From Fidelibacterota bacterium CG08_land_8_20_14_0_20_45_22 (GTDB taxonomy: Bacteria; Fidelibacterota; UBA2242): 64,000 nucleotides of DNA. Positions 43,866 to 62,603 of this stretch are shown here, piece after piece. The notes under the pieces were generated by a model. The model did no database searches, was not told the DNA's origin, and worked only from the letters and a program-made list of their open reading frames with translations. Each line of letters starts with the position of its first letter. Within the stretch, counting starts at the first letter, position 1. The position numbers and the translations under genes are program-made. Where the stretch lies: NCBI GenBank assembly GCA_002774355.1, contig PEYN01000018.1, forward strand, positions 91-64,090, written 5' to 3'.

Positions 43866-44693
43866 TCAAACCAATATTTTTGCGGTTCTTAACAGAAATT
43901 CTTCCGTCAGAGCCCGGCACAGATAGCGCCGGTATTCCGCGGTCGAGCGTTGATCGGTAATCGGTCTGACCCTGCGCTCGATGCAATCGAGGATTTCAGC
44001 GGATTTTCCTTCACGATATAATTGCTCGGCTTCGTAAGCCCGGATAATCGTCGGTCCGACCGAGGCGTATGTCAGGCGGATTTCGTTGTTATCCGGCAGG
44101 TACAGACCGAGGAAAGCGACCTTCGAGAGTGAGAGCGCCTTGCGCGGCCCGATCTTGCGATATGAATATTTATAGTTCCACGGAATGTTCAGCCGGATTT
44201 CTGTGAGCAGTTCGTCCGAGCGGAGAATTGTCTTCTTCGGCCCGGTGATGAAGTCGCGAACCGGAATCTTCCGGATACCTTGCGCTGATTCGAGCGTGAG
44301 TTCGGCATCCAGCGCGTAAAAGATCGGAAGTGTGTCGCCCGCCGGAGAAGCATTAACGATATTCCCGCCGAAAGTCGCCATGTTGCGGATTGACGGCGAA
44401 GCAATCTGAGTCACTGCATCGGTCAGCGGCGGAAAAATACTTTTCGCCTGCTCGAGATAGGCGGCGTAGGTCAGACCGGCTCCGATTGTCAACTTTCCTT
44501 CGCTGAAATTTATTTGACTAAGTTCCGAAAGATGATTGATCTGAATGAATACCTGCACTCGTTTGACATTTGTGCGGGCTTGCACAAGTAAATCAGTGCC
44601 CCCGGCGATTGGTTGTGCCACGGTTTGGCTCATCAGATCGAGCACTTCCGATTTTTTAGATGGACGGTAATATTTGAGTTTTTCGTACCACAT
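43866..44693 (-). CDS. Xanthine dehydrogenase-family FAD-binding subunit (CoxM/YgfM-like)
   Basis: FAD_binding_5-type N-terminus (YYRPSKKSEVLDLM...PIAGGTDL) plus CO dehydrogenase flavoprotein C-terminal domain; 275 aa. Confidence 0.85.
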   Translation of the reverse strand: MWYEKLKYYRPSKKSEVLDLMSQTVAQPIAGGTDLLVQARTNVKRVQVFIQINHLSELSQINFSEGKLTIGAGLTYAAYLEQAKSIFPPLTDAVTQIASPSIRNMATFGGNIVNASPAGDTLPIFYALDAELTLESAQGIRKIPVRDFITGPKKTILRSDELLTEIRLNIPWNYKYSYRKIGPRKALSLSKVAFLGLYLPDNNEIRLTYASVGPTIIRAYEAEQLYREGKSAEILDCIERRVRPITDQRSTAEYRRYLCRALTEEFLLRTAKILV

Positions 44694-45117
44694 GTTTATT
44701 TAAAAGTGACGGGTGATGAGTGACGGGTAATTTATGCATATCAATTACGTAAAAATATTCTATTTCTTTTTTCAATGAATTTATTAGTCCTATCAGCATC
44801 TGTCGGATTGTGGCTACTTTTTCATCCAAAGCAGATATATTTTTGATTAACTTTAGATTATTTGCAATAATTAATAACGTTTCTAATTCGCCTAACGATC
44901 CTAACGAAATAAATAAAAACTGAATGCATTCTTTTTTAGAACTTCGTCCAGCGCCTTCGGCAATGTTGGCTGGAATGGATATTACGGGTCTGCGGATTTG
45001 TGAAGTAATCCCGCAGGTTTCTTCTTTGGAAAAATCCCGTGTTAAAGAATAAACCTCCGAACCGAGTTCCATACTTTTCTTCCAAACCTTCAGGTCTTTA
45101 TGGGATTTTATTGCCAT
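44656..45117 (-). CDS. Four-helix-bundle protein (23S rRNA intervening-sequence protein family, TIGR02436-like)
   Basis: MAIKSHKDLKVWKKSMELGSEVYSLTRDFSKEE...QIRR...SIPANIAEG is the hallmark of this family; 38-nt overlap with the downstream coxM-like start. Confidence 0.8.
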   Translation of the reverse strand: MAIKSHKDLKVWKKSMELGSEVYSLTRDFSKEETCGITSQIRRPVISIPANIAEGAGRSSKKECIQFLFISLGSLGELETLLIIANNLKLIKNISALDEKVATIRQMLIGLINSLKKEIEYFYVIDMHKLPVTHHPSLLNKHVVRKTQILPSI

Positions 45118-45143
45118 GTACTCACCCTGTCACTTGTCACTTT
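44703..45143 (-). mobile_element. Inverted-repeat-bounded small element carrying a four-helix-bundle (23S rRNA IVS-type) protein gene, inserted between the FAD and 2Fe-2S subunit genes
   Basis: AAAGTGACGGGTGATGAGTGACGGGTAA at 44703-44730 pairs with the reverse complement of 45121-45143 (AAAGTGACAAGTGACAGGGTGAG). IR-R supplies the last 9 codons of the 2Fe-2S gene. IR-L plus the coxM start supply a 29-aa tail on the 4HB ORF. Confidence 0.5.
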
Positions 45144-45563
45144 CTCCACCGCTTCAACGATCTTCTTATATCCGGTACACCGGCAGAGATTTCCCGAGAG
45201 TGCTTCTTTAATTTCAGCGACAGTCGGATGCGGATTGTGTTTCAGCAGGGCGTAAGCCGATACGACGAATCCCGGTGTGCAGAACCCGCATTGCACCGCG
45301 CCGGTTTCTTCGAAGGATTTGAAAAGTTCATTAGCATTGATGCCTTCGATTGTGGTCACTTCCCGACCGTCACATTGGCCGAGCAGAACCAGACAGGAAT
45401 TCACCGGTTTGCCATCGAGCAGAACCATACACGCGCCGCATTCGCCTTCTCCGCAACCTTCCTTCGTGCCGGTCAGCTTTAATTCACTGCGCAAATAATC
45501 GAGCAGACGCGTTGAGGGAGAGGCTTTTGAGACCCGAGCTATACCATTTACAATAATATTCAC
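45108..45563 (-). CDS. (2Fe-2S)-binding subunit of a xanthine dehydrogenase-family molybdenum hydroxylase (CoxS-like)
   Basis: Plant-type ferredoxin motif GCGEGECGACMV and second cluster motif CGFCTPGFV...CRCTGY. Start uncertain (GTG at 45563/45566 lies inside the element repeat; the ORF call to 45641 would overlap the GxxExxY gene). Confidence 0.85.
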   Translation of the reverse strand: MNIIVNGIARVSKASPSTRLLDYLRSELKLTGTKEGCGEGECGACMVLLDGKPVNSCLVLLGQCDGREVTTIEGINANELFKSFEETGAVQCGFCTPGFVVSAYALLKHNPHPTVAEIKEALSGNLCRCTGYKKIVEAVEKVTSDRVSTWQ

Positions 45564-46047
45564 CACAGAGGACACGGAGGGCACAGAGGTATTTTTATTT
45601 ATTTTCTTTACTTTAGTCATTAATAATTCGGTGAACCCCATCGATTAATTTTACTACGTTGAAATTTATCAATAATCCTAAGATTCGATTAGAAAGTTTA
45701 AGATAAGACAATAATTGGGCTGTATGAATTGGGAGAAGATTTTCGATGGCTTTTAATTCAACCGCAATTTCACCCTCAACTAATAAATCTATCCGATAAC
45801 CACAGTCTAATTTTACATCTTTATAGACCACCGGCAGATCTTTCTGAGATTCCACTTTCAAACCTAATTGCTTTAATTCATACACAAGACATGCTTCATC
45901 GGTGGATTCCAGCAAACCCGGACCCAGTGCACGATAAACATCAGTAGCCTTACCTATTATTTTCTCCGTAATCTTATTTAATTCCTCTCGTGATTTCATC
46001 TATCTATCTAATATTTTCTCTGTGCTCTCTGTGTACTCTATGGTAAA
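45561..46047 (-). mobile_element. Inverted-repeat-bounded small element carrying a GxxExxY-family gene, inserted between the Mo-binding and 2Fe-2S subunit genes
   Basis: CACCACAGAGGACACGGAGGGCACAGAGGTA at 45561-45591 pairs with the reverse complement of 46016-46047 (TTTACCATAGAGTACACAGAGAGCACAGAGAA), about 24/30 matches. IR-R encodes the last 10 aa (VHREHRENIR) of the Mo subunit gene. Confidence 0.5.
45613..45999 (-). CDS. GxxExxY-family protein (PD-(D/E)xK nuclease-like, TIGR04256/PDDEXK_3-like)
   Basis: GKATDVYRALGPGLLESTDEACLVYEL...RIDLLVEGEIAVELKA contains the GxxExxY signature and a D...E.K core; 128 aa. Confidence 0.85.
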   Translation of the reverse strand: MKSREELNKITEKIIGKATDVYRALGPGLLESTDEACLVYELKQLGLKVESQKDLPVVYKDVKLDCGYRIDLLVEGEIAVELKAIENLLPIHTAQLLSYLKLSNRILGLLINFNVVKLIDGVHRIIND

Positions 46048-48232
46048 TCATTTCCGGGGTCAAGGGAATCTCATGGAATTCGACGCCCAGCGCATTCTCG
46101 ACCGCGCCGAGATATGCCGCCGGAATGCCGACTAACGGTTGTTCGCCGACGCCCTTCGCGCCGTACGGCCCGCGCGAGTAATTTTCTTCCAGAATAATGG
46201 ATTCGATTTCCGGCGCATCTAATGTTGTCGGAATGATGTAATCCGTCAGGCTTGCTTGATTCAATCTGCCGTTTGTTGCCGTCATAACTTCCAGCGAGGC
46301 GTAACCGAGTCCCTGCAAAGAGCCGCCTTCGATCTGGCCTTCAACCAGAACCGGATTGATTGCCTTGCCGATGTCGTGCGCCGCCGTGATTTTTCCAACC
46401 GTCACTTCAAAAGTCAGCGGGTCAACAGTAACTTCCACTACTGACGCCGCCCAGGAGTAAATTGGGTAAGCGTCGCCGACAAATTTATCATCATCCCAGA
46501 CGACGTCGTCCGGCACGCGATAAACACGCGTCGCGGTGAAAATACCATTCGTTGCCAGTTTCGCTTTTTCGGCAAAATCCTTTTTGGCGGGCGTCGCTCC
46601 GACCTGCTCCATCAGATCGGTACAACATTGAAAAACCAATCCGCCGACGATCATGGTCGTGCGCGAAGCGACCGTCGGCCCGGAATTTGGCACAATGGCT
46701 GTATTCGGAATTGCCACCGTGATTCTTTCGATGGGAAGAGCCAGCGCGTCGGCGGTAATCTGACGCATGACGGTATTCATGCCTTGTCCCATTTCAACAG
46801 TGGCGATACGGATCAATAATCCGGTTTCATTTGAATAATCGACAGAGGCGGTTGCCTTGATAATTTCTTCGCCTTTGCCCGTAAAACCGCATCCGTGGAA
46901 AAACGCAGAGATACCGATGCCTTTTAAAAGTTGACCATTTCGCGGCTGATTGCGGTATTGATTATATTTTTCAACGAAATTCGTACGCTCGGCGACAACA
47001 TTCAATGCTTTTTCCAAGCCAATGGATTCTGCTAATAATTGGCCGGTCGCCGTACGGTCACCGAGGCGCAAAATATTAATTTTCCGCAGAGAATAAGGGT
47101 CGAGATCCAGGCGATAAGCGGCGTGATTCATCTGAGCTTCGATGGCGAAGAACGCCTGCGGAGCGCCGAATCCGCGAAACGCGCCCGACGGCAACAGATT
47201 TGTCGCTACGGCTTTCGACGCTAAACGGATATGATCGCATTTGTAAACTCCCGGCGAGCCCAGCGCGCCGCGCGCCAAAACTACCTGTGAGAGCGTACTG
47301 TGCGCCCCGCCATTCAATATGAAATCGATGTCCATGGCGATAATGCGACTGTTCTTATCGAAAGCGATCCGGCGAATACTTTGCGACGGATGGCGTTTGG
47401 TTGTCACGGAAATGTCCTCGCTTCGATCATAGACGATTTTGACCGGTTTGCCAGATTTCAGCGCCAGAAGCGCCGCGTGACCGGAAATCAGCGATGGATA
47501 TTCCTCCTTGCCGCCGAATGCTCCACCGGTGGTCGCCTGTTCAACGACTATATCTTCCGGGTCGAGATTTAGCACTGGTGCCAGACCTTTTTGCACGTAA
47601 AACGGGCATTGCATTGAACCGACGATCCTGATGCCATTCTTGAAAGGATAAGCAATCACGCCCTGCGTTTCTAAATAGATATGCTCCTGATAGCCGGTGC
47701 GGAAGGTTTCCTCCAGCACGAATTTGCTTTTTGCGAAAGCTTTATCCGGGTCGCCCTTGACGTAGCCGTAACTCTTGAAAATGTTGTCACTGCCGTAAAT
47801 CGGCGGAAAATTCCCGGACAGCGCGTTTTCCATCGTTGAAATCGCCGGCAAATCTTCGTATTCAATTTGAAATTGTGAAGCGATCGCGCGCAGTTCATCC
47901 TCATTTTTTCCGGCTAACAGCGCAATCGGTTCGCCGATGTAATTGACGACATCTTTCGCCAAAAAGGGTTGATCTTCGTTGAACAGGGCGACGTAATTTT
48001 CACCGGGAATGTCTTCAGCCTTGATATAAATGACGTCGGGCGGCAATTCCGGAGCGACAATCCGCAGAATCTTCGCCCGCTGACGGTTCGAGCGGATCGT
48101 TACACCAAAGAGCATATCCGGAAAATCCAGATCATTGGTATATTTTGCTGCGCCACGCATTTTATCGGCGGCATCAAACCGCACAATCGGCTGGCCGACA
48201 TATTTTAGATCCATTTTCTGTTGATCGGACAT
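46004..48232 (-). CDS. Molybdopterin-binding large subunit of a xanthine dehydrogenase / aldehyde oxidase-family hydroxylase (CoxL/XdhD-like)
   Basis: 742 aa with Ald_Xan_dh_C hammerhead and the two Mo-cofactor binding domains; follows XdhC and precedes the 2Fe-2S and FAD subunit genes. Confidence 0.9.
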   Translation of the reverse strand: MSDQQKMDLKYVGQPIVRFDAADKMRGAAKYTNDLDFPDMLFGVTIRSNRQRAKILRIVAPELPPDVIYIKAEDIPGENYVALFNEDQPFLAKDVVNYIGEPIALLAGKNEDELRAIASQFQIEYEDLPAISTMENALSGNFPPIYGSDNIFKSYGYVKGDPDKAFAKSKFVLEETFRTGYQEHIYLETQGVIAYPFKNGIRIVGSMQCPFYVQKGLAPVLNLDPEDIVVEQATTGGAFGGKEEYPSLISGHAALLALKSGKPVKIVYDRSEDISVTTKRHPSQSIRRIAFDKNSRIIAMDIDFILNGGAHSTLSQVVLARGALGSPGVYKCDHIRLASKAVATNLLPSGAFRGFGAPQAFFAIEAQMNHAAYRLDLDPYSLRKINILRLGDRTATGQLLAESIGLEKALNVVAERTNFVEKYNQYRNQPRNGQLLKGIGISAFFHGCGFTGKGEEIIKATASVDYSNETGLLIRIATVEMGQGMNTVMRQITADALALPIERITVAIPNTAIVPNSGPTVASRTTMIVGGLVFQCCTDLMEQVGATPAKKDFAEKAKLATNGIFTATRVYRVPDDVVWDDDKFVGDAYPIYSWAASVVEVTVDPLTFEVTVGKITAAHDIGKAINPVLVEGQIEGGSLQGLGYASLEVMTATNGRLNQASLTDYIIPTTLDAPEIESIILEENYSRGPYGAKGVGEQPLVGIPAAYLGAVENALGVEFHEIPLTPEMIYHRVHREHRENIR

Positions 48233-48402: not shown

Positions 48403-49179
48403 CTAGGATTTCTTCCTCAATGAATCGGTTTCGGTTTTATTGATTACGCCTATCATTTCGCCCAGGATGGCTACCGCGATTTCAGCCGGTGTCTGCGCTC
48501 CGATATTCAGGCCAATCGGCGAGTAAAATTGCTCCGGAATGGCAATCTTTTCCTCAGTCAATCGCGCGCGGGTTTCTTTAACTTTATGCAGTGAACCGAT
48601 CAGGCCGATATATTCGAATGACTTTCCGCAAGTCAGCAATTGGCGCAGAACAGTGTAATCGAACTGATGATTGTAGGTCATAATCGCCGCAAAGAGATTC
48701 GACCCGGGAAAAGTTACCATCGGCAATTTTTCCAAATCGCACTGAATGAAGTCGATGGGCGCGAATTGCGGTTTGAGTTCCGATCGATTATCGTAAACCG
48801 TCACCCGAAAACCAATCTGCGGCGCCATTTTATAAAGCGCCTGCCCGCAATGGCCGCCGCCAAAAATTAACAGCGTGCGCACCGCCGGAAAATAGTCGTA
48901 AAAGAGCGTTGAACTGCCGCCGCAGGGCATACCAAGAGAATCGAGATCGTATCGTTTCAATTCCGACTTATGCGATTGGAAAATCAAGCCGGCATGGCGG
49001 ATCGCCTCTGCCTCCAGACTACCGCCGCCGACCGTGCCGAATGTTTTACCGTTTGGTAGAACCAGCATCTTGAAAGAAACCTTGCCCGGCGCCGCGCCGG
49101 AATTTTCGATGACGGTAATCAAAACGCAAGCCTGTCCAGAAGCAGTTATTTCCGTGATTTTATTAAACAGGGTGTTCAC
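48403..49179 (-). CDS. XdhC/CoxI-family molybdenum hydroxylase maturation factor
   Basis: XdhC_CoxI N-domain (ACVLITVIENSGAAPGKVSFKMLV...GTVGGGSLE) followed by the Rossmann-like XdhC_C domain (LLIFGGGHCGQAL). Confidence 0.85.
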   Translation of the reverse strand: MNTLFNKITEITASGQACVLITVIENSGAAPGKVSFKMLVLPNGKTFGTVGGGSLEAEAIRHAGLIFQSHKSELKRYDLDSLGMPCGGSSTLFYDYFPAVRTLLIFGGGHCGQALYKMAPQIGFRVTVYDNRSELKPQFAPIDFIQCDLEKLPMVTFPGSNLFAAIMTYNHQFDYTVLRQLLTCGKSFEYIGLIGSLHKVKETRARLTEEKIAIPEQFYSPIGLNIGAQTPAEIAVAILGEMIGVINKTETDSLRKKS

Positions 49180-49790
49180 TTTGTTCTCGCTTTCATTTTG
49201 GCAATTCGTTCTGCGGTGGATTGAAGTATTCCATAATCATTGGGCGTGTCCAGATCCAGCAGAATTTCTTCGTCATAAACCGTTACAAACCGCCTTTTGA
49301 ATTGATTAATGATCGTTTTAGGAGTTATGGAAGAATCGTTTTCGTCTGCCGCCAGAATTGCCGTCCGGACTTTTTCGCTGGCGAGGATCGGATGTCCGGC
49401 ACTACGATGGAACGATGGCTGGACAATGTCGGCTTTTTCTGCGGCGATTAATTTTTGGTAAACTTTAGCCGGAATCTGTGGCTGGTCGCCGAGTGCAATG
49501 AAAAAACGTAGCGTTTGAATCTGCGCGGCGCCGACTTTCACCGAAGAAAACATGCCTTTGGCGTACTGTTTATTTTCGACGAAAACCACGCGTTCGTCCC
49601 AGCGTTTCAGATTGACAATATCCTGCGCCCGAAAGCCCACCACGACGATAACCCGCTCCGACACTTCCAGCGCGGTGTCAATGACTGTTTCGACTATCGT
49701 GGATTGCCCGAAAGGCAACAACGGTTTGAAGGCGCCCATGCGGGTGGAAAGCCCGGCGGCGAGGACGACTGTATCAAACTTATTAACCAC
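49176..49790 (-). CDS. MobA/MocA-like nucleotidyltransferase (molybdenum cofactor cytidylyl/guanylyltransferase; YgfJ-like)
   Basis: VVLAAGLSTRMGAFKPLLPF N-terminal NTP-transferase motif; 204 aa; 4-bp overlap with the xdhC-like gene. Confidence 0.8.
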   Translation of the reverse strand: MVNKFDTVVLAAGLSTRMGAFKPLLPFGQSTIVETVIDTALEVSERVIVVVGFRAQDIVNLKRWDERVVFVENKQYAKGMFSSVKVGAAQIQTLRFFIALGDQPQIPAKVYQKLIAAEKADIVQPSFHRSAGHPILASEKVRTAILAADENDSSITPKTIINQFKRRFVTVYDEEILLDLDTPNDYGILQSTAERIAKMKARTK

Positions 49791-49809: not shown

Positions 49810-51033
49810 CTAATACTTTTTCATACTATTGATTATTGCTTCAAGATTTGGCTCAATTGTCGGTGGAATAGCGATCTTATTTTCTATTGCATTCATATCT
49901 TTAAAACCAACGCCGGTTAAAAGGATAACGATTTTCTGCAAGGGATCGAGGTTACTTTTATCTTTCAGAAATCCCGCCCAGGCCGCGGCGGCGGCCGGTT
50001 CGACGAAAACGCCCGCATCCTGGCAGAGTTGCAACTGAGCGGCGGTAATTTCGGCATCGCTGACTTCCGTAGCCCAGCCGCTACAGGCTTGCATGAATTT
50101 GATGGCCATCCGACCATTAGCCGGCGAAGCGACTGAAATGGAATCAGCCGCGGTTGTCGCCTTGTCAATGGTCAGCATCCTTCCGGATTGATAAGCTTTC
50201 GCGATGGCATTTGAGCCGCTAGCCTGTACGCTAACGATTTGCGGGATTTTCGCAATCAGTCCGGCGACTTTCAGATCGGCAAAACCCTTATAAACTCCGG
50301 CATAAATCACGCCGTCGCCAACCGGCACGAAGACGATGTCCGGCGCGCTCCGGCCAAGTTGATTGAACATTTCGATCGAAACGGTTTTTTTACCCTCGAT
50401 GGTCAGCGGATTGAAAGCCGTGTTGCGGTTGATACCGCCGAATTGCTTTGTGTACTCGATAGACAGTCTGAAGGCGTCGTCGTAAGTGCCGCGAATCGGA
50501 ATGACTGTTGCTCCGTAAAGCACCGACTGCAGAAGTTTGGCCTTCGGCGCAGTCGCCGGAACGAAAAGGATGACATTCAGGCCGAGCGCCGCACCTGCAC
50601 AGGCCATCGCCGAACCGGCATTGCCAGTCGAGGCCAGGACAACGGTTTTCTCGTTATGGTATAAAGCCTGTGCGGCAACCAATTGCGAAGCGCGGTCTTT
50701 CAGCGAGCCGGACGGATTGGCGCCGTCATTTTTCAGGAAAAGATTCGGTAAGCCATATTGCTGGCGCAATTTTTCCGGCGCAACGAGCGGCGTATTGCCC
50801 ACCGGATAGGCGGCGGCCTCCGGCAATTGATAAACGAGAAAATCGGCCGGAGTAACCGCCGGTTTATTTTTCAGCGACGCCAAATATTCCGGATCGAGAA
50901 GGGTTTCCAGCACACCTTTTTGAAATTCGCCGGGAATCTGTTCGCATCGTGGACAAAGATAACGGATTTGGTCGGCCGGATATTCAGCCCCGCAATCGCT
51001 ACAGCGATATTTAAAATTCACAACGCACCTCAA
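49810..51033 (-). CDS. PLP-dependent fold-type II enzyme of the threonine synthase family with N-terminal zinc-ribbon
   Basis: YRCSDCG...CPRC zinc ribbon; PLP-lysine motif NPSGSLKDRAS; Gly-rich loop GVGDGV; 407 aa. Start is TTG (51033) or GTG (51021). Confidence 0.7.
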   Translation of the reverse strand: MRCVVNFKYRCSDCGAEYPADQIRYLCPRCEQIPGEFQKGVLETLLDPEYLASLKNKPAVTPADFLVYQLPEAAAYPVGNTPLVAPEKLRQQYGLPNLFLKNDGANPSGSLKDRASQLVAAQALYHNEKTVVLASTGNAGSAMACAGAALGLNVILFVPATAPKAKLLQSVLYGATVIPIRGTYDDAFRLSIEYTKQFGGINRNTAFNPLTIEGKKTVSIEMFNQLGRSAPDIVFVPVGDGVIYAGVYKGFADLKVAGLIAKIPQIVSVQASGSNAIAKAYQSGRMLTIDKATTAADSISVASPANGRMAIKFMQACSGWATEVSDAEITAAQLQLCQDAGVFVEPAAAAAWAGFLKDKSNLDPLQKIVILLTGVGFKDMNAIENKIAIPPTIEPNLEAIINSMKKY

Positions 51034-55383: not shown

Positions 55384-55457
55384 CGGGTCTTCTGTAACTC
55401 GGCGCGCCGCGTCGAGAGCCTGAGTAACGAAGCAGGGAACGCAGTCAAGGTACGTTT

Positions 55458-55976: not shown

Positions 55977-56310
55977 TTTTTAATTCGGGAAGTTTACCGG
56001 TGCGATATTGTGCAAGAGCCTCGGCTATCGTCAAATTCTCCGCTGTAAAAATTTTAATCCCGGCGGCAGAAAGTACGCTGAAAGCCTTTGGCCCGCAATT
56101 TCCGGACACCAGTGCCTGCACTCCCAAGCGCGCAATGGCTTCCGCCGATTGGACGCCAGCGCCCTGTACCGTATTCTGGCTCTGCAGATTATCAAACAAT
56201 TTGTAAGATTCGTTGTCCAAATCATAGACGAGAAATAGCGGCGCTCGACCAAACCGGTTGTCTAAAAGAGAACTCAAATCATTTCCTGATGTTGTAAAAG
56301 CAATTTTCAT
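55954..56310 (-). CDS. NifX/NafY-like FeMo-cofactor-binding domain protein (Nitro_FeMo-Co), second copy
   Basis: MKIAFTTSGNDLSSLLDNRFGRAPLFLVYDLD...ALVSGNCGPKA pattern of PF02579; 118 aa. Confidence 0.8.
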   Translation of the reverse strand: MKIAFTTSGNDLSSLLDNRFGRAPLFLVYDLDNESYKLFDNLQSQNTVQGAGVQSAEAIARLGVQALVSGNCGPKAFSVLSAAGIKIFTAENLTIAEALAQYRTGKLPELKSDDVEGH

Positions 56311-56374
56311 AAACTTTCCCCTTCTTCTCCCGATTGGGATTAAAAGCGGGTTAACATTTACGATCGTAAAGTTA

Positions 56375-57100
56375 CTAGATTTTTACCTGTTTTACGATGG
56401 CTTTCATCACCTTTTCTTTGTCGATTTCTTTAAGGCAGAAGAACCAATCGAGACATTTGATTCCTTCCTTGCCTTCCATGCGCTCTTTGGCAACGCCGCA
56501 AGAACCGGCTGTCGGAACAATGACGTCATCACCCGGGCGCCAATCCGCCGGAGTCGCTATTGAAAATGCATCCGCAGTCTGCAATGCTGTGACAACACGA
56601 AGCAACTCATCAAAATTACGTCCCAAGCTGAGCGGATAGTAAATAATCGTACGGATAATGCCTTTGGGATCGATCACGAAGACGGCGCGTACCGCTTTTG
56701 TTGGACTTTCGCCCGGCATCATCATTCCGTATTTTTTGGCAACTTCCATGGTGATATCTTCGATCAAAGGAAATTTAACCTCGACATTCTTCATGCCTTT
56801 GTATTCGATTTTTTCCTTGATGGTGCGAAGCCAGGCAATGTGGCTGTATAAACCGTCCACAGAAAGCCCAACTAATTTGCAATTCAGTTTGGCAAATTGA
56901 TCTTCCATCGAAGCAAAAGTCATGAATTCTGAGGTACAAACTGGTGTAAAATCAGCCGGATGGCTAAACAGGATTACCCAGCTTCCCAAATACTGATCCG
57001 GGAAGTTGATCTCACCCTGCGTGGTAACGGCCTTGAAAGCAGGGGCCATGTCGCCGATGCGTGGCATTGACACATTCTGATTTTCTTTGTTTATTTCCAT
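56375..57100 (-). CDS. 1-Cys peroxiredoxin (Prx6-like)
   Basis: DFTPVCTSEF peroxidatic Cys motif; 241 aa length typical of the Prx6 subfamily. Confidence 0.9.
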   Translation of the reverse strand: MEINKENQNVSMPRIGDMAPAFKAVTTQGEINFPDQYLGSWVILFSHPADFTPVCTSEFMTFASMEDQFAKLNCKLVGLSVDGLYSHIAWLRTIKEKIEYKGMKNVEVKFPLIEDITMEVAKKYGMMMPGESPTKAVRAVFVIDPKGIIRTIIYYPLSLGRNFDELLRVVTALQTADAFSIATPADWRPGDDVIVPTAGSCGVAKERMEGKEGIKCLDWFFCLKEIDKEKVMKAIVKQVKI

Positions 57101-57189
57101 ACATTTTCTCCTTTTTTATTGGTTAGAGTCGCCTAAGCCGCGCCGGTTTCAAAACCGGCACGGCTTAGTTAACAAGTGATGGTACTTGA

Positions 57190-57546
57190 TCAGGTTTCTT
57201 TTCCCTTTTCAATCGTCGCAAGTCGTTTTTTCACTTCATCGAGTTCCGATTTTAGAAAATCAGATTGGTTGATTAGGGCTTGTTTTTCCGTCTCCGGATC
57301 AGGGTTCTGGTACGGCGAGGGGTATCCGTAAGGCACGTTATATCCGCTAAACCTTTGCCAGCCCGGTAACCCGTTGCCATAAAACCCGTGCCGGAATCCA
57401 CGTCCCCAGCCGCCACGGCCCATTCCGAAACCGCGTCCTGGCACTGGATTTGCGTATCCCGGTGCTCCGTTTCCCGCGCAGAATCCGGCCGCGCGTCCGG
57501 TCATTGGGCCCATTCCCATCGGACCCGTTCGATCTCCTCTTGGCAT
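57190..57546 (-). CDS. DUF5320-family Gly/Arg-rich protein
   Basis: N-terminal MPRGDRTGPMGMGPMTGRAAGFCAGNG motif typical of DUF5320, C-terminal coiled-coil (LKSELDEVKKRLATIEKG). Confidence 0.6.
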   Translation of the reverse strand: MPRGDRTGPMGMGPMTGRAAGFCAGNGAPGYANPVPGRGFGMGRGGWGRGFRHGFYGNGLPGWQRFSGYNVPYGYPSPYQNPDPETEKQALINQSDFLKSELDEVKKRLATIEKGKET

Positions 57547-57578
57547 AGTTATGATCTCCTTTCTTATAGATTAACTAT

Positions 57579-58187
57579 TTATTGTCTTGTCATTGCCGAA
57601 CCGCAGTTCGGGCATTTTTGTTCAAAGCAGGGAATACCGCGCCGATGCGGTTCTCTTCGTCCGCATACCGGACAGACGCAATAGTCACTTGGGTCGGCGG
57701 CCTCAAGGACGCTCACGCGCCCGAACCCTTGACCCCTTCTGCCCTGACCACGATTAGCGCCTTGTCCTGTTCTGCCCGGTCTTCTTCCTTTTACTGGAAA
57801 AATTTCGTTATAAGTACCATACATTTGCCCAAACTGATAGCGCCTTCGCCCGTAACAACCCGGCATGGCGAAAACATTCCAATCGGAACGTTTGGTAAGC
57901 CAAGCCTGGATGATTTCGTCGAGATCACCTGCTACAAACGGAATAACATAGATTCCGTGAGCAATGATGGTTTCATGTAAAGGTCGGGAGATTGCTCCGC
58001 AAACCAGCACCTCAATGCCCAATTCTTTTAATCGAGCGGCTTTCATGGCTGGAGTTAAATCGATAGGTATAAATTCCTGTTCTAATGAAATGACGCGTCC
58101 ACTTTCGGTCTCAGCGATGTGAATTTGTCCCGCAGTGTCGAAGACTGGCGCTATCCGATTGTTCCAGATTGTAAAGGCTACTTTCAT
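57579..58187 (-). CDS. NifX/NafY-like FeMo-cofactor-binding domain protein with Gly/Arg-rich linker and C-terminal zinc-ribbon
   Basis: N-terminal MKVAFTIWNNRIAPVFDTAGQIHIAE...VLVCGAIS (Nitro_FeMo-Co), RG-rich segment (GRRPGRTGQGANRGQGRRGQGFGR), CVCPVCG...CPNCG ribbon. Confidence 0.75.
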   Translation of the reverse strand: MKVAFTIWNNRIAPVFDTAGQIHIAETESGRVISLEQEFIPIDLTPAMKAARLKELGIEVLVCGAISRPLHETIIAHGIYVIPFVAGDLDEIIQAWLTKRSDWNVFAMPGCYGRRRYQFGQMYGTYNEIFPVKGRRPGRTGQGANRGQGRRGQGFGRVSVLEAADPSDYCVCPVCGRREPHRRGIPCFEQKCPNCGSAMTRQ

Positions 58188-58224
58188 ATTTCACAGTTCC
58201 AATTCATAATTTCAACAATATTTA

Positions 58225-58241
58225 AAGCATTTATCATGCCA
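58225..58241 (-). promoter_or_regulatory. Candidate sigma-54 (-24/-12) promoter for the NifX-like/DUF5320/peroxiredoxin operon
   Basis: Minus strand reads TGGCATGATAAATGCTT: GG and GC spaced as in the TGGCAC-N5-TTGC consensus. Lies about 40 nt upstream of the 58187 start codon and 135 nt downstream of the sigma-54 activator gene. Confidence 0.45.
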
Positions 58242-58374
58242 GAACAAAATATCCCTACTTTTCATCGCACAACTATCTGAAATATAGCAAGTTAAAAAAC
58301 TGCTTCTTTTAAATCACTGCGATTATATAGTAGCCTTGGCGCTACTCTGTCACCCTGCGATGGTTGCAGATATG

Positions 58375-59736
58375 TTATGATTTACGATGGGAGCGGCCGT
58401 CTTTTTCCGGCAATGAAATCCCGAGTTTTTTCATGCGGCGGAATAAGGTGGTCTTGTGAATGCCAAGTTCTTTCGCCGCCGCCGCCCGATTGAAATTATT
58501 GCGTTCGAGAGCGGACTGAATAGACTGGGAGTCGAGCAAATTGTGGGCAGAGCGGATCGTAGACAAACTTGAGTTTTTTGTGTAATGTGCCGTCAGTTCT
58601 TCGGGCAGGTGAGTCAGCAGAATATAGCCCTCATTACAAAGAATGAACGAGCGTTCGATTACATTTTCCAGTTCACGGACATTGCCCGGCCAGTCATGCG
58701 CCATTAGTAACGAGAGCGCTTCGGAGGAGATGCCTTTGATTGATTTCTGCCAGAGTTGGTTGAAGCGCCGGATAAATTGCCCAGTAATCAGCGGAATATC
58801 TTCTTTCCGGTGGCGGAGCGGCGGCAGGTCGACGCGCACAACGTTTACGCGATAGTAAAGATCGTCGCGGAATGTGCCAGCCTTCATCATTTCTGTCAAA
58901 TCCTTGTTAGTAGCAACAATAATCCGCGCGTCGGCGGTTTCAGAGCGGGTCGAACCGAGTGGCTCATAGATGTGATCCTGAAGTACCCGTAGAAGTTTGA
59001 CTTGCAACGCCGGGCTGATTTCACCGATTTCGTCGAGAAACAGTGTTCCGCCTTTGGCTAATGCAAAGCGTCCCGGTTTGTCTTTGTTAGCTCCGGTAAA
59101 CGCACCCTTTTTATAACCAAACAGTTCTGATTCCAGTAATTCGTCGGGTAATGCGCCGCAATTGACCGCGATGAATGGCCCTTTACGGCGCGGACTCAAA
59201 TGATGAACCGTCCTTGCGATCAATTCCTTGCCGGTTCCGGTTTCGCCGATTATCAAGACCGTGCTCGGGCTGGCGGCAATTGCCGGAAGCACTTCAAATA
59301 TTTTTTGCATCAAGGGACTACGACTGACAATATCGCCAAAAGTCATTTTGGCATGTAGTTCCTGGCGTAAAGTTTCGATTTCGCTCAAATCCCGAAAAGT
59401 CTCAGCCCCGCCGATGATGTAACCTTCTCCATCTTTCAGTACGGCGGTCGATATACTGATGGGTATGCGGGAGCCGTCCGCCTTAATAATGTAGGCGGAT
59501 TTGCCAATGATCGGCTTGCCGGTTTTTAATGTTTTCTGTAGGGCGCAGTCGGTTCCACAGAGGCTGGAGCGAAATACTTCCGAACAGCGTTGGCCAATCG
59601 CCTCTTCTCGCGTAACCCCGGTGATTTCTTCCGCCGCTCGATTAAAAGACGAAATGCGCCAATTGGAATCTACCGTAAAGACGCCATCGGAGATGCTTTC
59701 CAGAATATTTTCGATCATTTCAGGTTTCAGCGACAT
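58375..59736 (-). CDS. Sigma-54-dependent transcriptional activator with N-terminal PAS domain (YgeV-like)
   Basis: PAS N-terminus; AAA+ sigma-54 interaction domain (GETGTGKE Walker A, GAFTGA loop, DEIGE Walker B); C-terminal Fis-type HTH. Confidence 0.9.
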
Positions 59737-59760
59737 TTCATTCCAAAGTTAACTAATTTT

Positions 59761-59903
59761 CACCACAGAGAGTATTTTGCCGCGGATTAGCGCGGATAAA
59801 TCAATAATATTTATAGACTCTTTGCTAATATATGGTGTAGAGTTTTTCGTTTTTTTTGTGTTATTGATATAAAGAGATTTTTCTCTGTGTACTCTGTGGT
59901 GAG
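59761..59903. repeat. ORF-less 143-bp MITE-like derivative of the GxxExxY-carrying element, between the sigma-54 activator and ygeW-like genes
   Basis: Termini CACCACAGAGAGTA (59761-59774) and CTCTGTGTACTCTGTGGTGAG (59884-59903) are inverted repeats. They match the termini of the 45561..46047 element (CACCACAGAG..., ...CTCTGTGTACTCTATGG). Internal palindrome CCGCGGATTAGCGCGG. Confidence 0.55.
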
Positions 59904-59913
59904 TTTAAAAACA

Positions 59914-60936
59914 TTACGGTCTTCCGCCCATCGTCAGCGCCATGACGGCTTTCGCGGTATGCAGACGGTTTTCGGCTTCGTCGTAAATGATCGCCGCTGG
60001 TCCGTCAATGACTTCATCGGCGACTTCTTTGCCGCGATCGGCGGGCAGGGCGTGCATGTATTTGACTTCTGGTGCGGCGAGTTTCATCCGGCGGGCGTCG
60101 CAAATCCAATCGGTATGTTTTTCGAGATTGGTCTTCATCTCTTTGCGACACTCTTCTTCATTTTGGTTGTACTCGTCGAATTCATAGTTGCCGAATCCGC
60201 CCCAGTTTTTCGGGATGACAATCTGAGCGCTACGGAATCCCTCATCCATGTTGTCGGTGAATGACAGTTTGCCGCCATTCAGCCGGGTGTTTTCCTGCGC
60301 CTGGGCGACATATTCCTTTTTTAATGGAAATTCTTTCGGCGCGGCGACCGTCACGTCCATACCGAAACGCGGAAAGAGCAGAATTTGCGAAAGCGGTACG
60401 GAGAGCGGTTTAGCGTGACTGGTGGCGTACGCCCAGGAAATCGTGACTTTCAAGCCATGCAAATTTTGCCCGAAATATTCCTGCATCGTCATCAAATCGG
60501 CGATTACCTGCATGGGGTGAAAAATATCATCCTGCAACGAGAGAATCGGCACGGACGAGAATTGCGCCAATTCACGTAGATATTTGTTGCCGATGCCGTA
60601 GAAGCAATTGCGGCAGGCGATGCCGTGTCCCATGCGCGAAAGCACCATGGCAGTATCCTTAGCCGATTCGCCGTGTGAAAGTTGCATTTTGTCGGGTGTC
60701 AAGTCATGGGCATGGCCGCCGAGTTGAGTCATGCCGGCTTCCATCGAATTGCGCGTGCGCGTGGATTGCTCAAAAAACATCATGAAAAGCGTCTTGTCCT
60801 GCAATAGCCGATGCGGCTCACCGAGCGCGAATTTGCGCTTGAGGTCAGCGGCAACCCCGAGCACCATATTGATTTCGTTTTTTGTCCATTCATTAAAAGT
60901 GATGAGGTGTTTCCCTCGTAAAAGAGTCTCGTTCAT
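59914..60936 (-). CDS. YgeW-family carbamoyltransferase (ATCase/OTCase superfamily; oxamate carbamoyltransferase-like)
   Basis: STRTR carbamoyl-phosphate motif; WAYATSHAKPLSVP and MHALPADRG segments closely resemble E. coli YgeW (WAYSPSYGKPLSVP, MHCLPAD). Confidence 0.85.
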   Translation of the reverse strand: MNETLLRGKHLITFNEWTKNEINMVLGVAADLKRKFALGEPHRLLQDKTLFMMFFEQSTRTRNSMEAGMTQLGGHAHDLTPDKMQLSHGESAKDTAMVLSRMGHGIACRNCFYGIGNKYLRELAQFSSVPILSLQDDIFHPMQVIADLMTMQEYFGQNLHGLKVTISWAYATSHAKPLSVPLSQILLFPRFGMDVTVAAPKEFPLKKEYVAQAQENTRLNGGKLSFTDNMDEGFRSAQIVIPKNWGGFGNYEFDEYNQNEEECRKEMKTNLEKHTDWICDARRMKLAAPEVKYMHALPADRGKEVADEVIDGPAAIIYDEAENRLHTAKAVMALTMGGRP

Positions 60937-60946
60937 ATCAAACCTT

Positions 60947-61372
60947 TCATGTTAACCGCGGAGGACGCTGAGAACGCAGAGTTTCTCCTTGATAATTGTT
61001 GACAATTCTTTTTATTCCATTTTTAAGTATGCTTGAATTGAAGTTAATCAACAACCCTACTTGTAGTTTTGAGATTTTTAAGTAATTCAGTAGTTGCGCC
61101 TGATCGATATTGGTCAGTTCGTTGACGGCTTTACACTCAACCACCAATTGGTCGTCGATAAAAAAGTCGCAACGAAAACCTTTTTCTATCACTATGTCAG
61201 CATATTTAACGGACAGATATTTTTCCTTTTCAAATTTCATTCCGGCTTCCTGCATTTCACAAGCCAGGGCGGCCTGATAAACCGATTCCAAAAACCCGGG
61301 GCCAAGATTGCGGTGAACCTTAATCGCTAAACCGATTACTGTTTCCGTCAGTTGGTTTATATCTTCAAACAT
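60947..61372 (-). CDS. GxxExxY-family protein (second copy)
   Basis: GLAIKVHRNLGPGFLESVYQAALACEM...RCDFFIDDQLVVECKA contains the GxxExxY signature; paralog of 45613..45999. Confidence 0.85.
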   Translation of the reverse strand: MFEDINQLTETVIGLAIKVHRNLGPGFLESVYQAALACEMQEAGMKFEKEKYLSVKYADIVIEKGFRCDFFIDDQLVVECKAVNELTNIDQAQLLNYLKISKLQVGLLINFNSSILKNGIKRIVNNYQGETLRSQRPPRLT

Positions 61373-61405
61373 AAAATTGCTCCGTGCCCTCTGCGTCCTC
61401 GGCGG
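60958..61405 (-). mobile_element. Second GxxExxY-carrying inverted-repeat element, inserted between the M20 peptidase and carbamoyltransferase genes
   Basis: GCGGAGGACGCTGAGAACGCAGAG (60958-60981) pairs with the reverse complement of CTCCGTGCCCTCTGCGTCCTCGGCGG (61380-61405). IR-L encodes the C-terminal tail QGETLRSQRPPRLT of the GxxExxY ORF. Confidence 0.45.
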
Positions 61406-61406
61406 T

Positions 61407-62603
61407 TTATTTCCCGCGGCTCAGATTTGCGACCAGTCCGGCGTAGAAAGCCGCGGCTTGCCAGAGGTGCTCGACCGGCGTCCATTCGTTCGGGGCGTGG
61501 GCTTGCTCCTCGAATCCCGGCCCGAAGCCGATGCACGGTATACCATGCACGCCGCGAATCGTCACACCATTGGTCGAGAAAGTCCACTTGTCGACAACCG
61601 GCTCCTTTGCGAACAGGTTGCGGTAGTTTTCAATTCCAGCCTGAACGAGAGGGTGGTCGGTTTCCAGTTTCCAGGTTGGGAAATATTTTTCCATTGGATA
61701 GACTTTTCCGGTGAATGCCTTTTCCCGGTAAACCGGCAATTCGACTTTGGCGTCAATTTTCAGTTTTTCAATGATAGCACGAATTTCCGCTAACGCTGAT
61801 TCCTTCGTCTCGCCCCAGGTCAGGCGGCGGTCGAGATAGATCGAACAATAATCTGGCACGGCACATAATGACGGACTGATAGATTTTATCTGGCTTAGCA
61901 CGACGGTGCCTTTGCCGAGAAATTCATCGAATGCCAGACGTTCGTTGAGCAGTTCAATTTCTTTTATCAGCGGTGCGATTTTGTAAACGGCGTTGTCGCC
62001 GCGTTCCGGCGCGGAGCCGTGCGCGGAAAGTCCGACGACGGAGATTTCGATTTCCATGCGTCCGCGCTGACCGCGATAAATCCGACAGCCGGTTGGTTCG
62101 GTGCTGACGGCGAAGTCGGGGCGGAGGTGGTCTTCATTGACAATATAATTCCAGCACAAGCCGTCGCAATCTTCTTCCATGACCGAACCGACGAAATAGA
62201 CAGTGCAATCTCTGGCGAGGTCGAATTCCATAATAATGCGTGCCGCCGCCAGCATAGACGCCATGCCGCCTTTCTGGTCAGCTACGCCGCGCCCCCAGAC
62301 CTTGCCGTCTTTCACATGACCATCGAACGGATCGAACTGCCACAGACTACGGTTGCCGACATCCACGGTGTCTATGTGAGCGTCGAAAGCGATTTTGACT
62401 GGACCATTGCCGAGGCGCCCGATGATGTTGCCGATGCCGTCGATGATTATTTCATCGAAGCCGATGTCTTCCATTTCCTTTTTTATTCGGCTAATTACAT
62501 TTCCCTCTTGGCCACTCAGTGAGGGAATCGAGGCAAGTTCAGCCAGGAAATTGGCTGTAGAATGATCTAAGCCTTTAGCAAGCCTTATGATTTTTGTTTT
62601 CAT
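61407..62603 (-). CDS. M20-family peptidase, YgeY-like
   Basis: Long collinear similarity to E. coli YgeY (e.g. MEEDCDGLCWNYIV, YRGQRGRMEIEI, HGSAPERGDNA, VVDKWTFSTNGV, HAPNEW). Start placed at the internal Met MKTKIIRL (62603). Confidence 0.85.
   Translation of the reverse strand: MKTKIIRLAKGLDHSTANFLAELASIPSLSGQEGNVISRIKKEMEDIGFDEIIIDGIGNIIGRLGNGPVKIAFDAHIDTVDVGNRSLWQFDPFDGHVKDGKVWGRGVADQKGGMASMLAAARIIMEFDLARDCTVYFVGSVMEEDCDGLCWNYIVNEDHLRPDFAVSTEPTGCRIYRGQRGRMEIEISVVGLSAHGSAPERGDNAVYKIAPLIKEIELLNERLAFDEFLGKGTVVLSQIKSISPSLCAVPDYCSIYLDRRLTWGETKESALAEIRAIIEKLKIDAKVELPVYREKAFTGKVYPMEKYFPTWKLETDHPLVQAGIENYRNLFAKEPVVDKWTFSTNGVTIRGVHGIPCIGFGPGFEEQAHAPNEWTPVEHLWQAAAFYAGLVANLSRGK

Follow-up and report, generated by a model that had tools for sequence, protein, structure and literature searches.

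A stretch of 64,000 nt from Fidelibacterota bacterium CG08_land_8_20_14_0_20_45_22 (contig PEYN01000018.1; the whole stretch is referred to here as the window) carries genes related to those for anaerobic purine catabolism in Escherichia coli, on the minus strand between positions 43866 and 62603. A first-pass annotation had treated this region as one island, collinear in content with the ygeV-xdhD island of E. coli K-12, and the proteins of that island were compared with those of the window in both directions. The main analysis covered the region from 43866 to 62603, and the neighbouring contigs L089-L093, which overlap the end of the window, were used beyond position 64000. Every gene named in the first-pass annotation was found, on the minus strand and where it had been placed. 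From 62603 to 43866, the order is an M20 hydrolase, a GxxExxY open reading frame (ORF), a carbamoyltransferase (CT), an activator, a block of ten genes, a threonine synthase (ThrC)-like enzyme, MocA-like and XdhC-like proteins, a molybdenum (Mo) subunit, a second GxxExxY ORF, a 2Fe-2S (FeS) subunit, a four-helix-bundle ORF and an FAD subunit.

The region consists of two modules parted by an unrelated operon of the ORP type and is not a single collinear island. The ORP-type genes, including the activator (51304-59736; 8.4 kb), make up about 45% of the span and had gone unmentioned in the annotation. Independent assemblies (JGI, ENA and Logan) show identical gene junctions, so that a chimeric origin of the arrangement is excluded. 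The locus is a variant of the known anaerobic purine (reductive urate) cluster that is fragmented and specific to this lineage. The genes of the two modules and of the upstream flank are as follows.

~64332-67397 (extrapolated; 0.3-3.4 kb outside the window; contigs L089-L093): YgfK homologue, 1021 aa
63366-64000, minus: esterase (Pfam PF00756), truncated by the end of the window
61407-62603, minus: YgeY-family M20 ureido-hydrolase (NF009555, TIGR03526)
59914-60936, minus: short (340 aa) YgeW-related CT, predicted to be knotted (motifs, synteny)
49810-51021, minus: ThrC-derived fold-II pyridoxal phosphate (PLP) enzyme with an N-terminal Cys4 zinc ribbon (profile scores, alignment)
49176-49790, minus: MocA-like nucleoside triphosphate transferase, probable molybdenum cofactor (Moco) cytidylyltransferase
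48403-49179, minus: XdhC-family Moco insertion/maturation factor
46004-48232, minus: Mo-binding subunit of a predicted XdhA-type purine hydroxylase (alignment)
45108-45641 (ORF maximum; true start probably ~45566, in a repeat arm), minus: 2Fe-2S subunit
43866-44693, minus: FAD-binding subunit, XdhB-like

YgeY and YgfK homologues

The M20 hydrolase scored 559.8 bits with NF009555 (cut-off 321) and 537.8 bits with TIGR03526 (cut-off 321.5), and is 55% identical to E. coli YgeY (E = 7e-157). It is a genuine YgeY, as had been proposed, rather than a generic dipeptidase, and in an NCBIfam scan of the purine-locus proteins it was the only one within the window to pass an equivalog cut-off.

Homologues of hyuA, yqeA, yqeC, ssnA, ygfK and ygeX were not detected in the 64-kb window by tblastn with E. 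coli queries. The earlier statement that hydantoinase, carbamate kinase, ssnA and ygfK are missing is thus correct for the window, but for ygfK it is true of the window alone. In the overlapping contigs, the order past 64000 is a tetratricopeptide repeat (TPR) protein, YgfK, the esterase, a 149-aa ORF, an 82-aa ORF and ygeY. Along its entire length, the YgfK homologue shows 44% identity to the E. coli protein, and it scored 1328.6 bits with TIGR03315 (cut-off 835.3). The first-pass annotation had suggested that either the downstream chemistry differs from that of E. coli or the absent genes lie elsewhere. Because ygfK lies just beyond the window, the argument for a different chemistry from its absence fails, though the absence of ssnA and hyuA is real. 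A Pfam scan from 30.8 to 41 kb, reaching 13 kb downstream, detected TonB/ExbBD, peptidases, a methyltransferase and a GAF protein and no added purine genes.

Related loci

A genome scan anchored on the CT recovered 80 loci (67-94% identity), and their gene maps were drawn by tblastn. They come from Neomarinimicrobiota, Ignavibacteria, Bacteroidota, deltaproteobacterial and myxococcal metagenome-assembled genomes (MAGs), Spirochaetes, CSSED10-310, Calditrichia and others. YgeY is directly upstream of the CT in 62 of the 67 loci with enough sequence and, together with the equivalog-level YgeY and the YgfK outside the window, this bears out the assignment of the locus to the ygeW-xdhD anaerobic purine type. 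Among the loci with at least 8 kb on both sides, 28/29 include ssnA, ygfK or hyuA, the exception being L008, the closest relative of the window. HyuA was found in 23 of the 80. The ThrC-like gene starts within 1.6 kb of the CT in 38 of 43 loci, compared with 8.9 kb in the window, and is followed by a MocA-like gene in about 35.

Seven Marinimicrobia MAGs (L012, L016, L017, L019, L020, L026 and L044) have the order xdhD-like - hyuA - ssnA - ygfK - ygeY - CT - thrC-like - mocA - Mo - FeS - FAD; mocA was undetected in L020, and xdhC is terminal in those contigs that extend far enough. The window resembles the canonical clusters of Neomarinimicrobiota and Ignavibacteria (for example L012, L016, L017, L026; L054, L066) in its CT family (69-86% identity) and in the core order ygeY - CT - thrC-like - mocA - (xdhC) - Mo/FeS/FAD. 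In contrast to the window, these clusters have contiguous xdhD-like, hyuA, ssnA and ygfK genes, and the CT and ThrC-like genes are adjacent. The YgeY, ThrC-like and Mo proteins of the window are only 42-55% identical to those of other Marinimicrobia.

Two further loci were found by look-ups anchored on the ThrC-like protein alone. In L103 the gene lies beside CT, carbamate kinase, MocA, XdhC and Mo genes, in the order esterase - ADH - CT - carbamate kinase - CT - thrC-like - mocA - xdhC - Mo - FeS - FAD, and the lower module of the window is collinear and orthologous with it (54-75% identity). In L102 the gene follows an ORP-type block. Carbamate kinase is also found 7 kb upstream of ygeY in L008. 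The two CT genes that flank carbamate kinase in L103 (6391-9658 of this related Marinimicrobia contig) are additional paralogues, 38-39% identical to the window CT, and no YgeY is present.

Comparison with L008 gave dN/dS values of 0.04 (CT), 0.06 (YgeY), 0.11 (ThrC-like) and 0.25 (MocA), a sign of purifying selection, with dS near saturation. The purine-module genes are kept by selection despite the lack of ssnA, hyuA and an XdhD-type enzyme close by.

The PF00756 esterase is kept as an upstream neighbour in L008 (7506-8354; 80% identity) and L103 (4357-5196; 59%). An esterase next to the purine module is a trait of the sub-lineage made up of the window, L008 and L103, and is absent from the canonical clusters.

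A short YgeW-related carbamoyltransferase

The CT had been called YgeW-type. In blastp it scored 173 bits with YgeW, 151 with ArgI and 73 with PyrB, and it is 34% identical to E. coli YgeW. The two proteins have in common a proline-rich knot loop (AKPLSVPL in the CT and GKPLSVPQ in YgeW, within a WAY..S..KPLSVP motif) and the motifs RFGMDVT, PKxW, DWxC and YMHxLPAD. The His of the (S/A)HGE motif is also found in both and is replaced by Arg in the ornithine carbamoyltransferase (OTC) of Pyrococcus. The OTC motifs DxxxSMG and HCLP, both of which are present in true OTC representatives, are missing from the CT, which has KNWGGFG and HALP instead. However, the two insertions of YgeW are also missing, and the C-terminal helix is OTC-like.

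The CT family forms one 50%-identity cluster among 1.84 billion representatives. Its nearest neighbours are uncharacterised carbamoyltransferases, several with the WAY..KP.SVP loop, and true OTCs rank lower. An AF2 model built from a 10-sequence alignment was poor (mean pLDDT 74, with residues 45-89 disordered), and Foldseek searches of the PDB with it gave TM scores of ~0.7 to OTC, N-acetylornithine carbamoyltransferase (AOTC) and PTC alike.

Because of the common motifs and the synteny, we regard the CT as related to YgeW but as a separate subfamily, with a predicted knot. The earlier designation holds for motifs and gene neighbourhood, but not for overall identity or for the curated YgeW models, both of which the protein fails. 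Whether it might instead be an OTC is left ambiguous by the profile searches, since OTC is its top hidden Markov model (HMM), below cut-off, while the motifs and synteny point to YgeW. Public sources name it 'ornithine carbamoyltransferase'.

A ThrC-like enzyme in the place of YgeX

The first-pass annotation had recognised a fold-II PLP enzyme with a zinc ribbon, of the threonine synthase-like branch, in the place of the diaminopropionate ammonia-lyase YgeX, and this was confirmed. The protein matches YgeX only weakly (23% identity). Like the solved threonine synthases 1UIM, 2ZSJ, 2D1F and 6CGQ, which represent different lineages, it is a fold-II PLP enzyme with the SxKDR lysine motif and the STGN, EG.KT and G.KD motifs (~155-165 bits in phmmer); unlike them, it has an added N-terminal Cys4 zinc ribbon and lies in a purine-catabolism context. 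It fails NF006050 (212 bits vs 303). A cysteate synthase identity was rejected (52 bits vs 325). Public sources call this protein 'threonine synthase'.

Across 46 loci with at least 6 kb of sequence downstream, 30 contained the ThrC-like gene and six contained YgeX; none had both and ten had neither. The ygeX-type loci lack both the ThrC-like gene and MocA. In 43 ThrC-like sequences, the PLP lysine, all four cysteines of the zinc ribbon, A139, T211 and D240-G-V never vary; the four solved ThrCs have T, R and N-A-G in the place of A139, T211 and D240-G-V. The motifs concerned change from STGNT to STGNA, from NPxRxEGQKT to NPLTIEGKKT and from PVGNAGN to PVGDGVI. The replacement of Arg and Asn by Thr and Asp would suit a substrate that bears an amino group in place of the phosphate.

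Among the homologues found by look-ups anchored on the ThrC-like protein alone, five lie beside YgfK (53% identical to E. coli), SsnA (60%), YgeY, Mo and FeS genes. All five clusters are from spirochaetes, and they include that of the complete Sediminispirochaeta smaragdinae genome, where the ThrC-like gene lies at about 1.4725-1.4738 Mb of CP002116.1. The ThrC-like gene occurs without MocA in all five and in loci of deltaproteobacterial and Bdellovibrio type (L030, L059 and L074). Because it is never found with YgeX, has three invariant motif changes and is present in spirochaete YgfK-SsnA-YgeY clusters, the ThrC-like enzyme is a candidate replacement for YgeX.

In the spirochaete clusters (L100 8445-9908, S. 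smaragdinae CP002116.1; L101, L104, L105), the ThrC-like gene is always preceded by a gene for a 487-490-aa PLP (PF00291) protein, for which blastp found no match to any E. coli island protein, including YgeX, or to the window proteins. Carbamoyltransferase and hyuA are absent from these clusters. This hints at a different route for ureido-group removal there.

A literature search for a ThrC-like replacement of diaminopropionate ammonia-lyase returned nothing usable, and a threonine synthase-like enzyme is unmentioned in either of the papers on the urate pathway (PMC12507026; 10.1101/2025.04.24.650524). In the first of these, YgeX neighbours were counted by Pfam PF00291, which would take in the ThrC-like family (PMC12507026). 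We tentatively suggest, as an idea with somewhat less than even chances, that the zinc-ribbon ThrC family marked by A139, T211 and D240 is an undescribed terminal lyase that replaces YgeX in Marinimicrobia, Ignavibacteria, deltaproteobacterial lineages and spirochaetes including S. smaragdinae, and that, together with the very highly conserved 340-aa CT, it defines another version of the pathway that is widespread in the environment.

One further feature abuts the start of the ThrC-like gene on its upstream side.

51034-51092, minus: two tandem copies of AAAATTGCCCTGACTTTNNNACAAGT, 33 nt apart

The exact core of AAAATTGCCCTGACTTTNNNACAAGT was matched twice against none expected. Searches of the rest of the window, the region upstream of ygfK and the L102 and L103 spacers orthologous to this one did not find the 26-nt repeat, which may act as an operator or a promoter element.

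The Mo enzyme and its maturation genes

MocA-like and XdhC-like genes are present, as had been annotated, though both score below curated cut-offs. The MocA-like protein is 30% identical to E. coli MocA (TIGR03310, 146.5 bits vs 186.45). The XdhC-like protein scored 167.6 bits with NF045664 and 115.5 bits with TIGR02964, both below cut-off, and is 59% identical to its L103 orthologue and 29% identical to the N-terminal half of YqeB.

The Mo, 2Fe-2S and FAD subunits had been equated with XdhD plus YgfM. All three subunits are present, but XdhA and XdhB are closer. The Mo subunit is 27% identical to XdhA and 24-26% to XdhD, passed no equivalog and scored 159 bits with the XdhD model TIGR03313 (cut-off 1102). 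The FAD subunit is 30% identical to XdhB and 26% to YgfM, and scored 68 bits with the YgfM model TIGR03312 (cut-off 241.5). The 2Fe-2S subunit is 43% identical to E. coli XdhC (the FeS subunit) and 75% identical to that of L103, and scored 178 bits with the pucE model (cut-off 254).

The Mo subunit was aligned with XdhA, XdhD and 42 subunits from related loci. The purine-hydroxylase residues E243, R353 and E697 are kept. These catalytic Glu, Arg and Glu residues correspond to E802, R880 and E1261 of the bovine enzyme. The XdhD-type A(I/L)GEGK insertion, with Glu606, is present in the XdhD-like subunits of the sister clusters and missing from the window subunit, as from XdhA; Glu606 has been linked to urate reduction (PMC12507026). 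Because the insertion is missing, XdhA is closer and the Glu/Arg/Glu set is kept, the enzyme is of the XdhABC type rather than the XdhD/YgfM type, and may either oxidise xanthine or interconvert urate and 2,8-dioxopurine. The latter option is suggested by an XdhAC enzyme of Clostridium (10.1101/2025.04.24.650524) and by the Mo enzyme of the spirochaete clusters, which is their only one.

A selenium-dependent hydroxylase was also considered and rejected: TIGR03311 gave 402.6 bits vs 830, yqeC had no match and YqeB was matched in its XdhC-like half only (selD was not searched for).

An OrpR-type activator and ORP-type block

The following features separate the two modules.

58375-59736, minus: OrpR-type sigma-54 enhancer-binding protein (PAS-AAA+-HTH), with a PAS cysteine triad
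58226-58241, minus: sigma-54 promoter-like element of the -24/-12 type (TGGCATGATAAATGCT); the first ORP (Di-Nase) gene lies 39 nt downstream
51304-58187, minus: ORP-type block of ten genes (Pfam on the identical JGI contig, and NCBIfam)
57579-58187, 55954-56310 and 51304-51642, minus: three Di-Nase/NifX-like proteins (PF02579)
57190-57546, minus: DUF5320 protein
56375-57100, minus: 1-Cys peroxiredoxin (NCBIfam model passed)
55458-55976, minus: TrmO_N protein (NCBIfam TrmO model passed)
54583-55383, minus: DUF89/ARMT1 protein
53732-54583 and 51787-52659, minus: two Orp3/Orp4-like P-loop proteins with 2x[4Fe-4S] (CbiA/ParA + Fer4)
52773-53732, minus: radical SAM protein

The activator had been described as YgeV-like, and this did not stand. 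Its similarity to YgeV (35% identity over 441 residues) begins at YgeV residue 165 and lies mainly in the generic AAA+ and helix-turn-helix (HTH) parts; the N-terminal region of about 160 residues of the 592-aa YgeV is missing, and no NCBIfam equivalog is passed. In the OrpR of Desulfovibrio, the PAS residues C52, C61 and C65 bind a [4Fe-4S] cluster and an acidic residue is found at position 54 (PMC8359166). The activator has C51, E53, C60 and C64 at the same spacing, and E. coli YgeV has no cysteines at the triad positions. In the intergenic spacers of the locus, TGGCATGATAAATGCT is the only -24/-12 site with two or fewer mismatches, and none was found before ygeY, CT, thrC-like, Mo or ygfK. 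On account of the OrpR triad, the sigma-54 site before the first ORP gene and the ORP-type gene content, we assign the activator to the ORP block and not to the purine genes, with redox sensing as its predicted role.

The ORP complex includes Di-Nase proteins as well as Orp3 and Orp4, which are P-loop proteins that carry two [4Fe-4S] motifs (PMC6345978). The genes downstream of the activator match this composition, with Di-Nase proteins of Orp5/Orp8 type, and have stress genes in addition. Features common to the window and the Desulfovibrio vulgaris orp operons with OrpR (PMC8359166, PMC6345978) are the PAS-AAA+-HTH activator, the Cys-x8-Cys-x3-Cys pattern with an acidic residue at +2, a sigma-54 promoter, two Orp3/Orp4-like proteins and several Di-Nase (NifX-like) proteins. 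The window differs in having a single co-directional operon rather than two divergent ones, a Di-Nase domain that is free-standing, and additional genes for the 1-Cys peroxiredoxin, DUF5320, TrmO_N, DUF89 and radical SAM proteins. The two-domain MrpORP (Mrp/NBP35 + Di-Nase) is absent from the window block; the 51304-51642 product matches the C-terminal Di-Nase part of MrpORP (positions 265-365 of NF041136; 129.7 bits vs 450), and separate Mrp-type genes are found in L008 and L102. The product of the first ORP gene (57579-58187) has a Di-Nase domain, a Gly/Arg-rich linker and a C-terminal CxxC...CxxC zinc-ribbon tail, and the DUF5320 protein encoded after it has a similar Gly-rich region.

A probable variant of the reductive urate cluster

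The reductive urate (2,8-dioxopurine) pathway of gut bacteria was solved in 2025 (PMC12507026; 10.1101/2025.04.24.650524). The first step is the reduction of urate to 2,8-dioxopurine by XdhD-YgfM. YgfK and SsnA then act on the purine ring system, which they reduce and whose six-membered ring they open, and HyuA cleaves the resulting hydantoin to 2,3-diureidopropionate. This compound loses one ureido group through YgeW, which uses phosphate, and the other through YgeY, and the diaminopropionate formed is converted by YgeX to pyruvate and ammonia (PMC12507026; 10.1101/2025.04.24.650524). The two papers disagree on which ureido group is attacked by YgeW, and ssnA served as a marker gene in one of them (PMC12507026).

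The E. coli/Clostridium cluster, ygeW-ygeX-ygeY-hyuA-yqeA ... mocA-ygfK-ssnA-ygfM-xdhD (PMC12507026; 10.1101/2025.04.24.650524), has several counterparts at the locus: equivalogs of YgeY and YgfK, a YgeW-related CT beside YgeY, MocA/XdhC-like genes, an XDH-family Mo enzyme and a fold-II PLP enzyme. In contrast, ssnA, hyuA, yqeA, yqeB and yqeC are not found locally and no YgeV-type regulator is present. The CT is shorter and of a separate subfamily, a ThrC-derived enzyme is found instead of YgeX, the Mo enzyme is XdhABC-like without the Glu606 insertion, and the cluster is split by an 8.9-kb foreign block.

Starting from the gene identities, synteny statistics, motif changes and promoter position observed here, we consider it fairly probable that two modules of the anaerobic reductive urate (2,8-dioxopurine) cluster, in a Marinimicrobial version, are found here on either side of an unrelated operon. 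The scheme that we infer for the substrates, the function of the ThrC-like enzyme and the target of the regulator is as follows. The first module would comprise ygeY and the CT, with ygfK outside the window. The CT would phosphorolyse one ureido group of 2,3-diureidopropionate to give carbamoyl phosphate, and YgeY would hydrolyse the other to give 2,3-diaminopropionate. The second module would comprise thrC-like - mocA - xdhC - Mo/FeS/FAD. Its ThrC-derived PLP enzyme would deaminate the C3 diamino acid to pyruvate and ammonia, instead of YgeX, while MocA and XdhC would see to the maturation of the cytosine-dinucleotide Mo cofactor for a purine hydroxylase of the XdhA type, itself a xanthine dehydrogenase or a urate/2,8-dioxopurine dehydrogenase. 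The OrpR-type activator, sensing Fe-S or redox state, would drive the ORP-type metallocluster and oxidative-stress operon from its own -24/-12 promoter, and not the purine genes.

Several observations weigh against this reading. The CT fails both YgeW models (NF005538, 192.6 bits vs 453; TIGR03316, 184 vs 500), and its top HMM is that of OTC (TIGR00658, 249 bits, below the cut-off of 280.85). The ThrC-like protein marginally passes the thrC model TIGR00260 (171.5 bits vs 167.1), and both MocA and phylogeny confound the mutual exclusion of the ThrC-like gene and YgeX. The residues changed in the ThrC-like family are presumably those that bind the phosphate of O-phosphohomoserine in ThrC structures, which a literature search did not confirm. 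The sigma-54 consensus scan of the window gave 25 matches vs 23 expected, which is the chance level, so that the case for TGGCATGATAAATGCT as a promoter comes from its position. An ORP-type block is also found between the CT and ThrC-like genes in L008 and directly upstream of thrC-like - mocA in L102. This similar placement of redox/Fe-S genes indicates that the juxtaposition is stable in the sub-lineage, and a functional link between the block and the Mo genes may exist. Finally, ssnA, hyuA, an XdhD-type subunit and carbamate kinase are absent from the window and from the 5 kb past ygfK, and L008 also lacks ygfK; the full pathway is therefore not demonstrated for this organism.

These absences could mean that the ring-reducing and ring-opening genes have been lost in the window, L008 and L103, and that the modules which were kept (CT, YgeY, ThrC-like and XdhA-type enzymes and the esterase, with carbamate kinase nearby in L008 and L103) now process a different or externally supplied ureido or N-heterocyclic compound. 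The lack of ssnA, hyuA and an XdhD-type gene near any of the three related loci fits such a change of use, as do the two other CT paralogues with carbamate kinase and no YgeY in L103, the conserved esterase neighbour and the purifying selection on the genes. However, an intact equivalog-level YgfK is kept near ygeY, and in the known pathway the YgfK product needs SsnA (PMC12507026). Moreover, the search covered about 70 kb of the genome, and ssnA and hyuA may lie elsewhere. Repurposing of this kind seems unlikely, if the least implausible of the alternatives.

Alternatively, the ThrC-like protein could work with MocA and XdhC to mature the Mo cofactor, donating sulfur or selenium for instance, instead of acting as a catabolic lyase, and the ORP block could be part of the same metal-cofactor logistics. 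The adjacency of thrC-like and mocA in about 35 loci, and in L102 where neither a Mo enzyme nor YgeY is found within 10 kb, is consistent with this, as are the joint absence of both genes from ygeX-type loci and the position of the ORP-type block next to the pair, between it and the CT in the window and L008 and directly upstream of it in L102. Against this, the gene lacks a MocA partner in L030, L059, L074 and the five spirochaete clusters, where it is paired with another PLP enzyme beside YgfK-SsnA-YgeY, and no precedent for such a role was found. We judge a cofactor role for the ThrC-like protein to be decidedly improbable. A weaker extension of our own proposal is that in this Marinimicrobial sub-lineage the ORP-type block beside thrC-like - mocA serves the cofactor logistics of the Mo enzyme.

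A single YgeV-controlled island equivalent to E. coli ygeV-ygeW-ygeY...ygfJ-ygfM-xdhD, in which the activator regulates the purine genes and the Mo enzyme is XdhD with YgfM, is largely refuted and carries very little probability. Seven proteins do have their best E. coli island match as first annotated, and the alignment of the activator with YgeV is long. However, YgeV lacks the cysteine triad and the activator lacks the YgeV N-terminal region, the sole plausible sigma-54 site is found upstream of the ORP genes, the Mo subunit does not fit XdhD nor the FAD subunit YgfM, and genes of the middle block were detected only in L008 among the 80 CT-anchored loci.

Least probable is a set of housekeeping genes, in which the CT and M20 protein serve arginine synthesis, as an acyl-ornithine carbamoyltransferase paired with an acyl-citrulline deacylase, with the ThrC-like protein as threonine synthase and the Mo enzyme unrelated: the public names, the OTC and N-acetylornithine carbamoyltransferase scores of the CT (206 bits for the latter), the narrow pass of TIGR00260 and a CT family that is 67-94% identical across phyla, as is often seen for housekeeping enzymes, are outweighed by the missing OTC motifs, the M20 protein passing the YgeY equivalog and not the ArgE or DapE models, the ssnA, ygfK or hyuA neighbours in 28/29 well-flanked loci (arg and thr genes were not screened for) and the loss from the ThrC-like family of three residues that are invariant in solved ThrCs. 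From the motifs and synteny, we reject a role of the CT and M20 pair in the arginine pathway.

The same gene set is found in 80 or more relatives from uncultured sediment and groundwater phyla, with two components as non-orthologous or sub-family-level replacements. As the CT and ThrC-like proteins are misnamed in public sources, metabolic reconstructions from these MAGs would overlook the anaerobic fermentation of purines and infer, wrongly, that arginine and threonine are synthesised. The CT subfamily and the ThrC-derived enzyme are new here, and the candidate function of the latter is testable in the cultured spirochaete S. smaragdinae. The window also illustrates how a sigma-54 activator beside purine genes can be mis-assigned when its true home is an OrpR/ORP redox module.

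Cassettes and other features of the locus

Rfam searches of the window at the gathering threshold and of the locus at E <= 1 detected no riboswitch (Moco, purine or xanthine) or other RNA, and scans for sigma-70 promoters and terminators gave matches at the level expected by chance. The FAD subunit gene is followed directly (42121-43834) by a DNA adenine methyltransferase, with weak CcrM/PRK11524 similarity, and a 246-aa ORF without family matches, probably a restriction-modification pair that marks the end of the locus.

Three small ORFs, missed in the first-pass annotation, interrupt the purine operons at intergenic spacers.

60947-61372, minus: GxxExxY (PD-(D/E)XK) cassette 1 (TIGR04256, 146 bits vs 35), with 28-nt inverted repeats at 60954-60981/61380-61407
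45613-45999, minus: GxxExxY cassette 2 (TIGR04256, 138 bits), with 40-nt inverted repeats at 45558-45597/46009-46048
44656-45117, minus: four-helix-bundle cassette (TIGR02436, 115.5 bits vs 24), with inverted repeats at 44703-44727/45126-45143

Each is flanked by inverted repeats of the CACAGAG/CGCGGAG type, which form a long stem with the ORF in its loop, and RNA folding closes the stem of cassette 2 (z = -2.7). There are no further TIGR04256 or TIGR02436 members in the 64 kb, and cassette 2 and the four-helix-bundle cassette are absent from the orthologous L103 operon. Small ORFs of both families are known from intervening sequences of 23S rRNA, where they likewise lie in the loop of an inverted-repeat stem; the window copies differ in being found in intergenic spacers of protein-coding operons.

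The ygeY-CT spacer holds a GxxExxY gene in eight of 68 other loci, from different phyla (L008, L009, L010, L012, L014, L050, L051 and L070), with an identity to the window copies of only 34-74%, which points to either repeated insertion or rapid divergence at this spacer. Just downstream of the CT stop codon, at the boundary with the OrpR/ORP block (59749-59900), is an ORF-less copy of the repeat element, CACCACAGAGTACACAGAGA ... TCTCTGTGGTGA, with the two parts ~110 nt apart, and a related sequence, CACCACGAAGAGCAC, is found at the other boundary of the ORP block (~51246).

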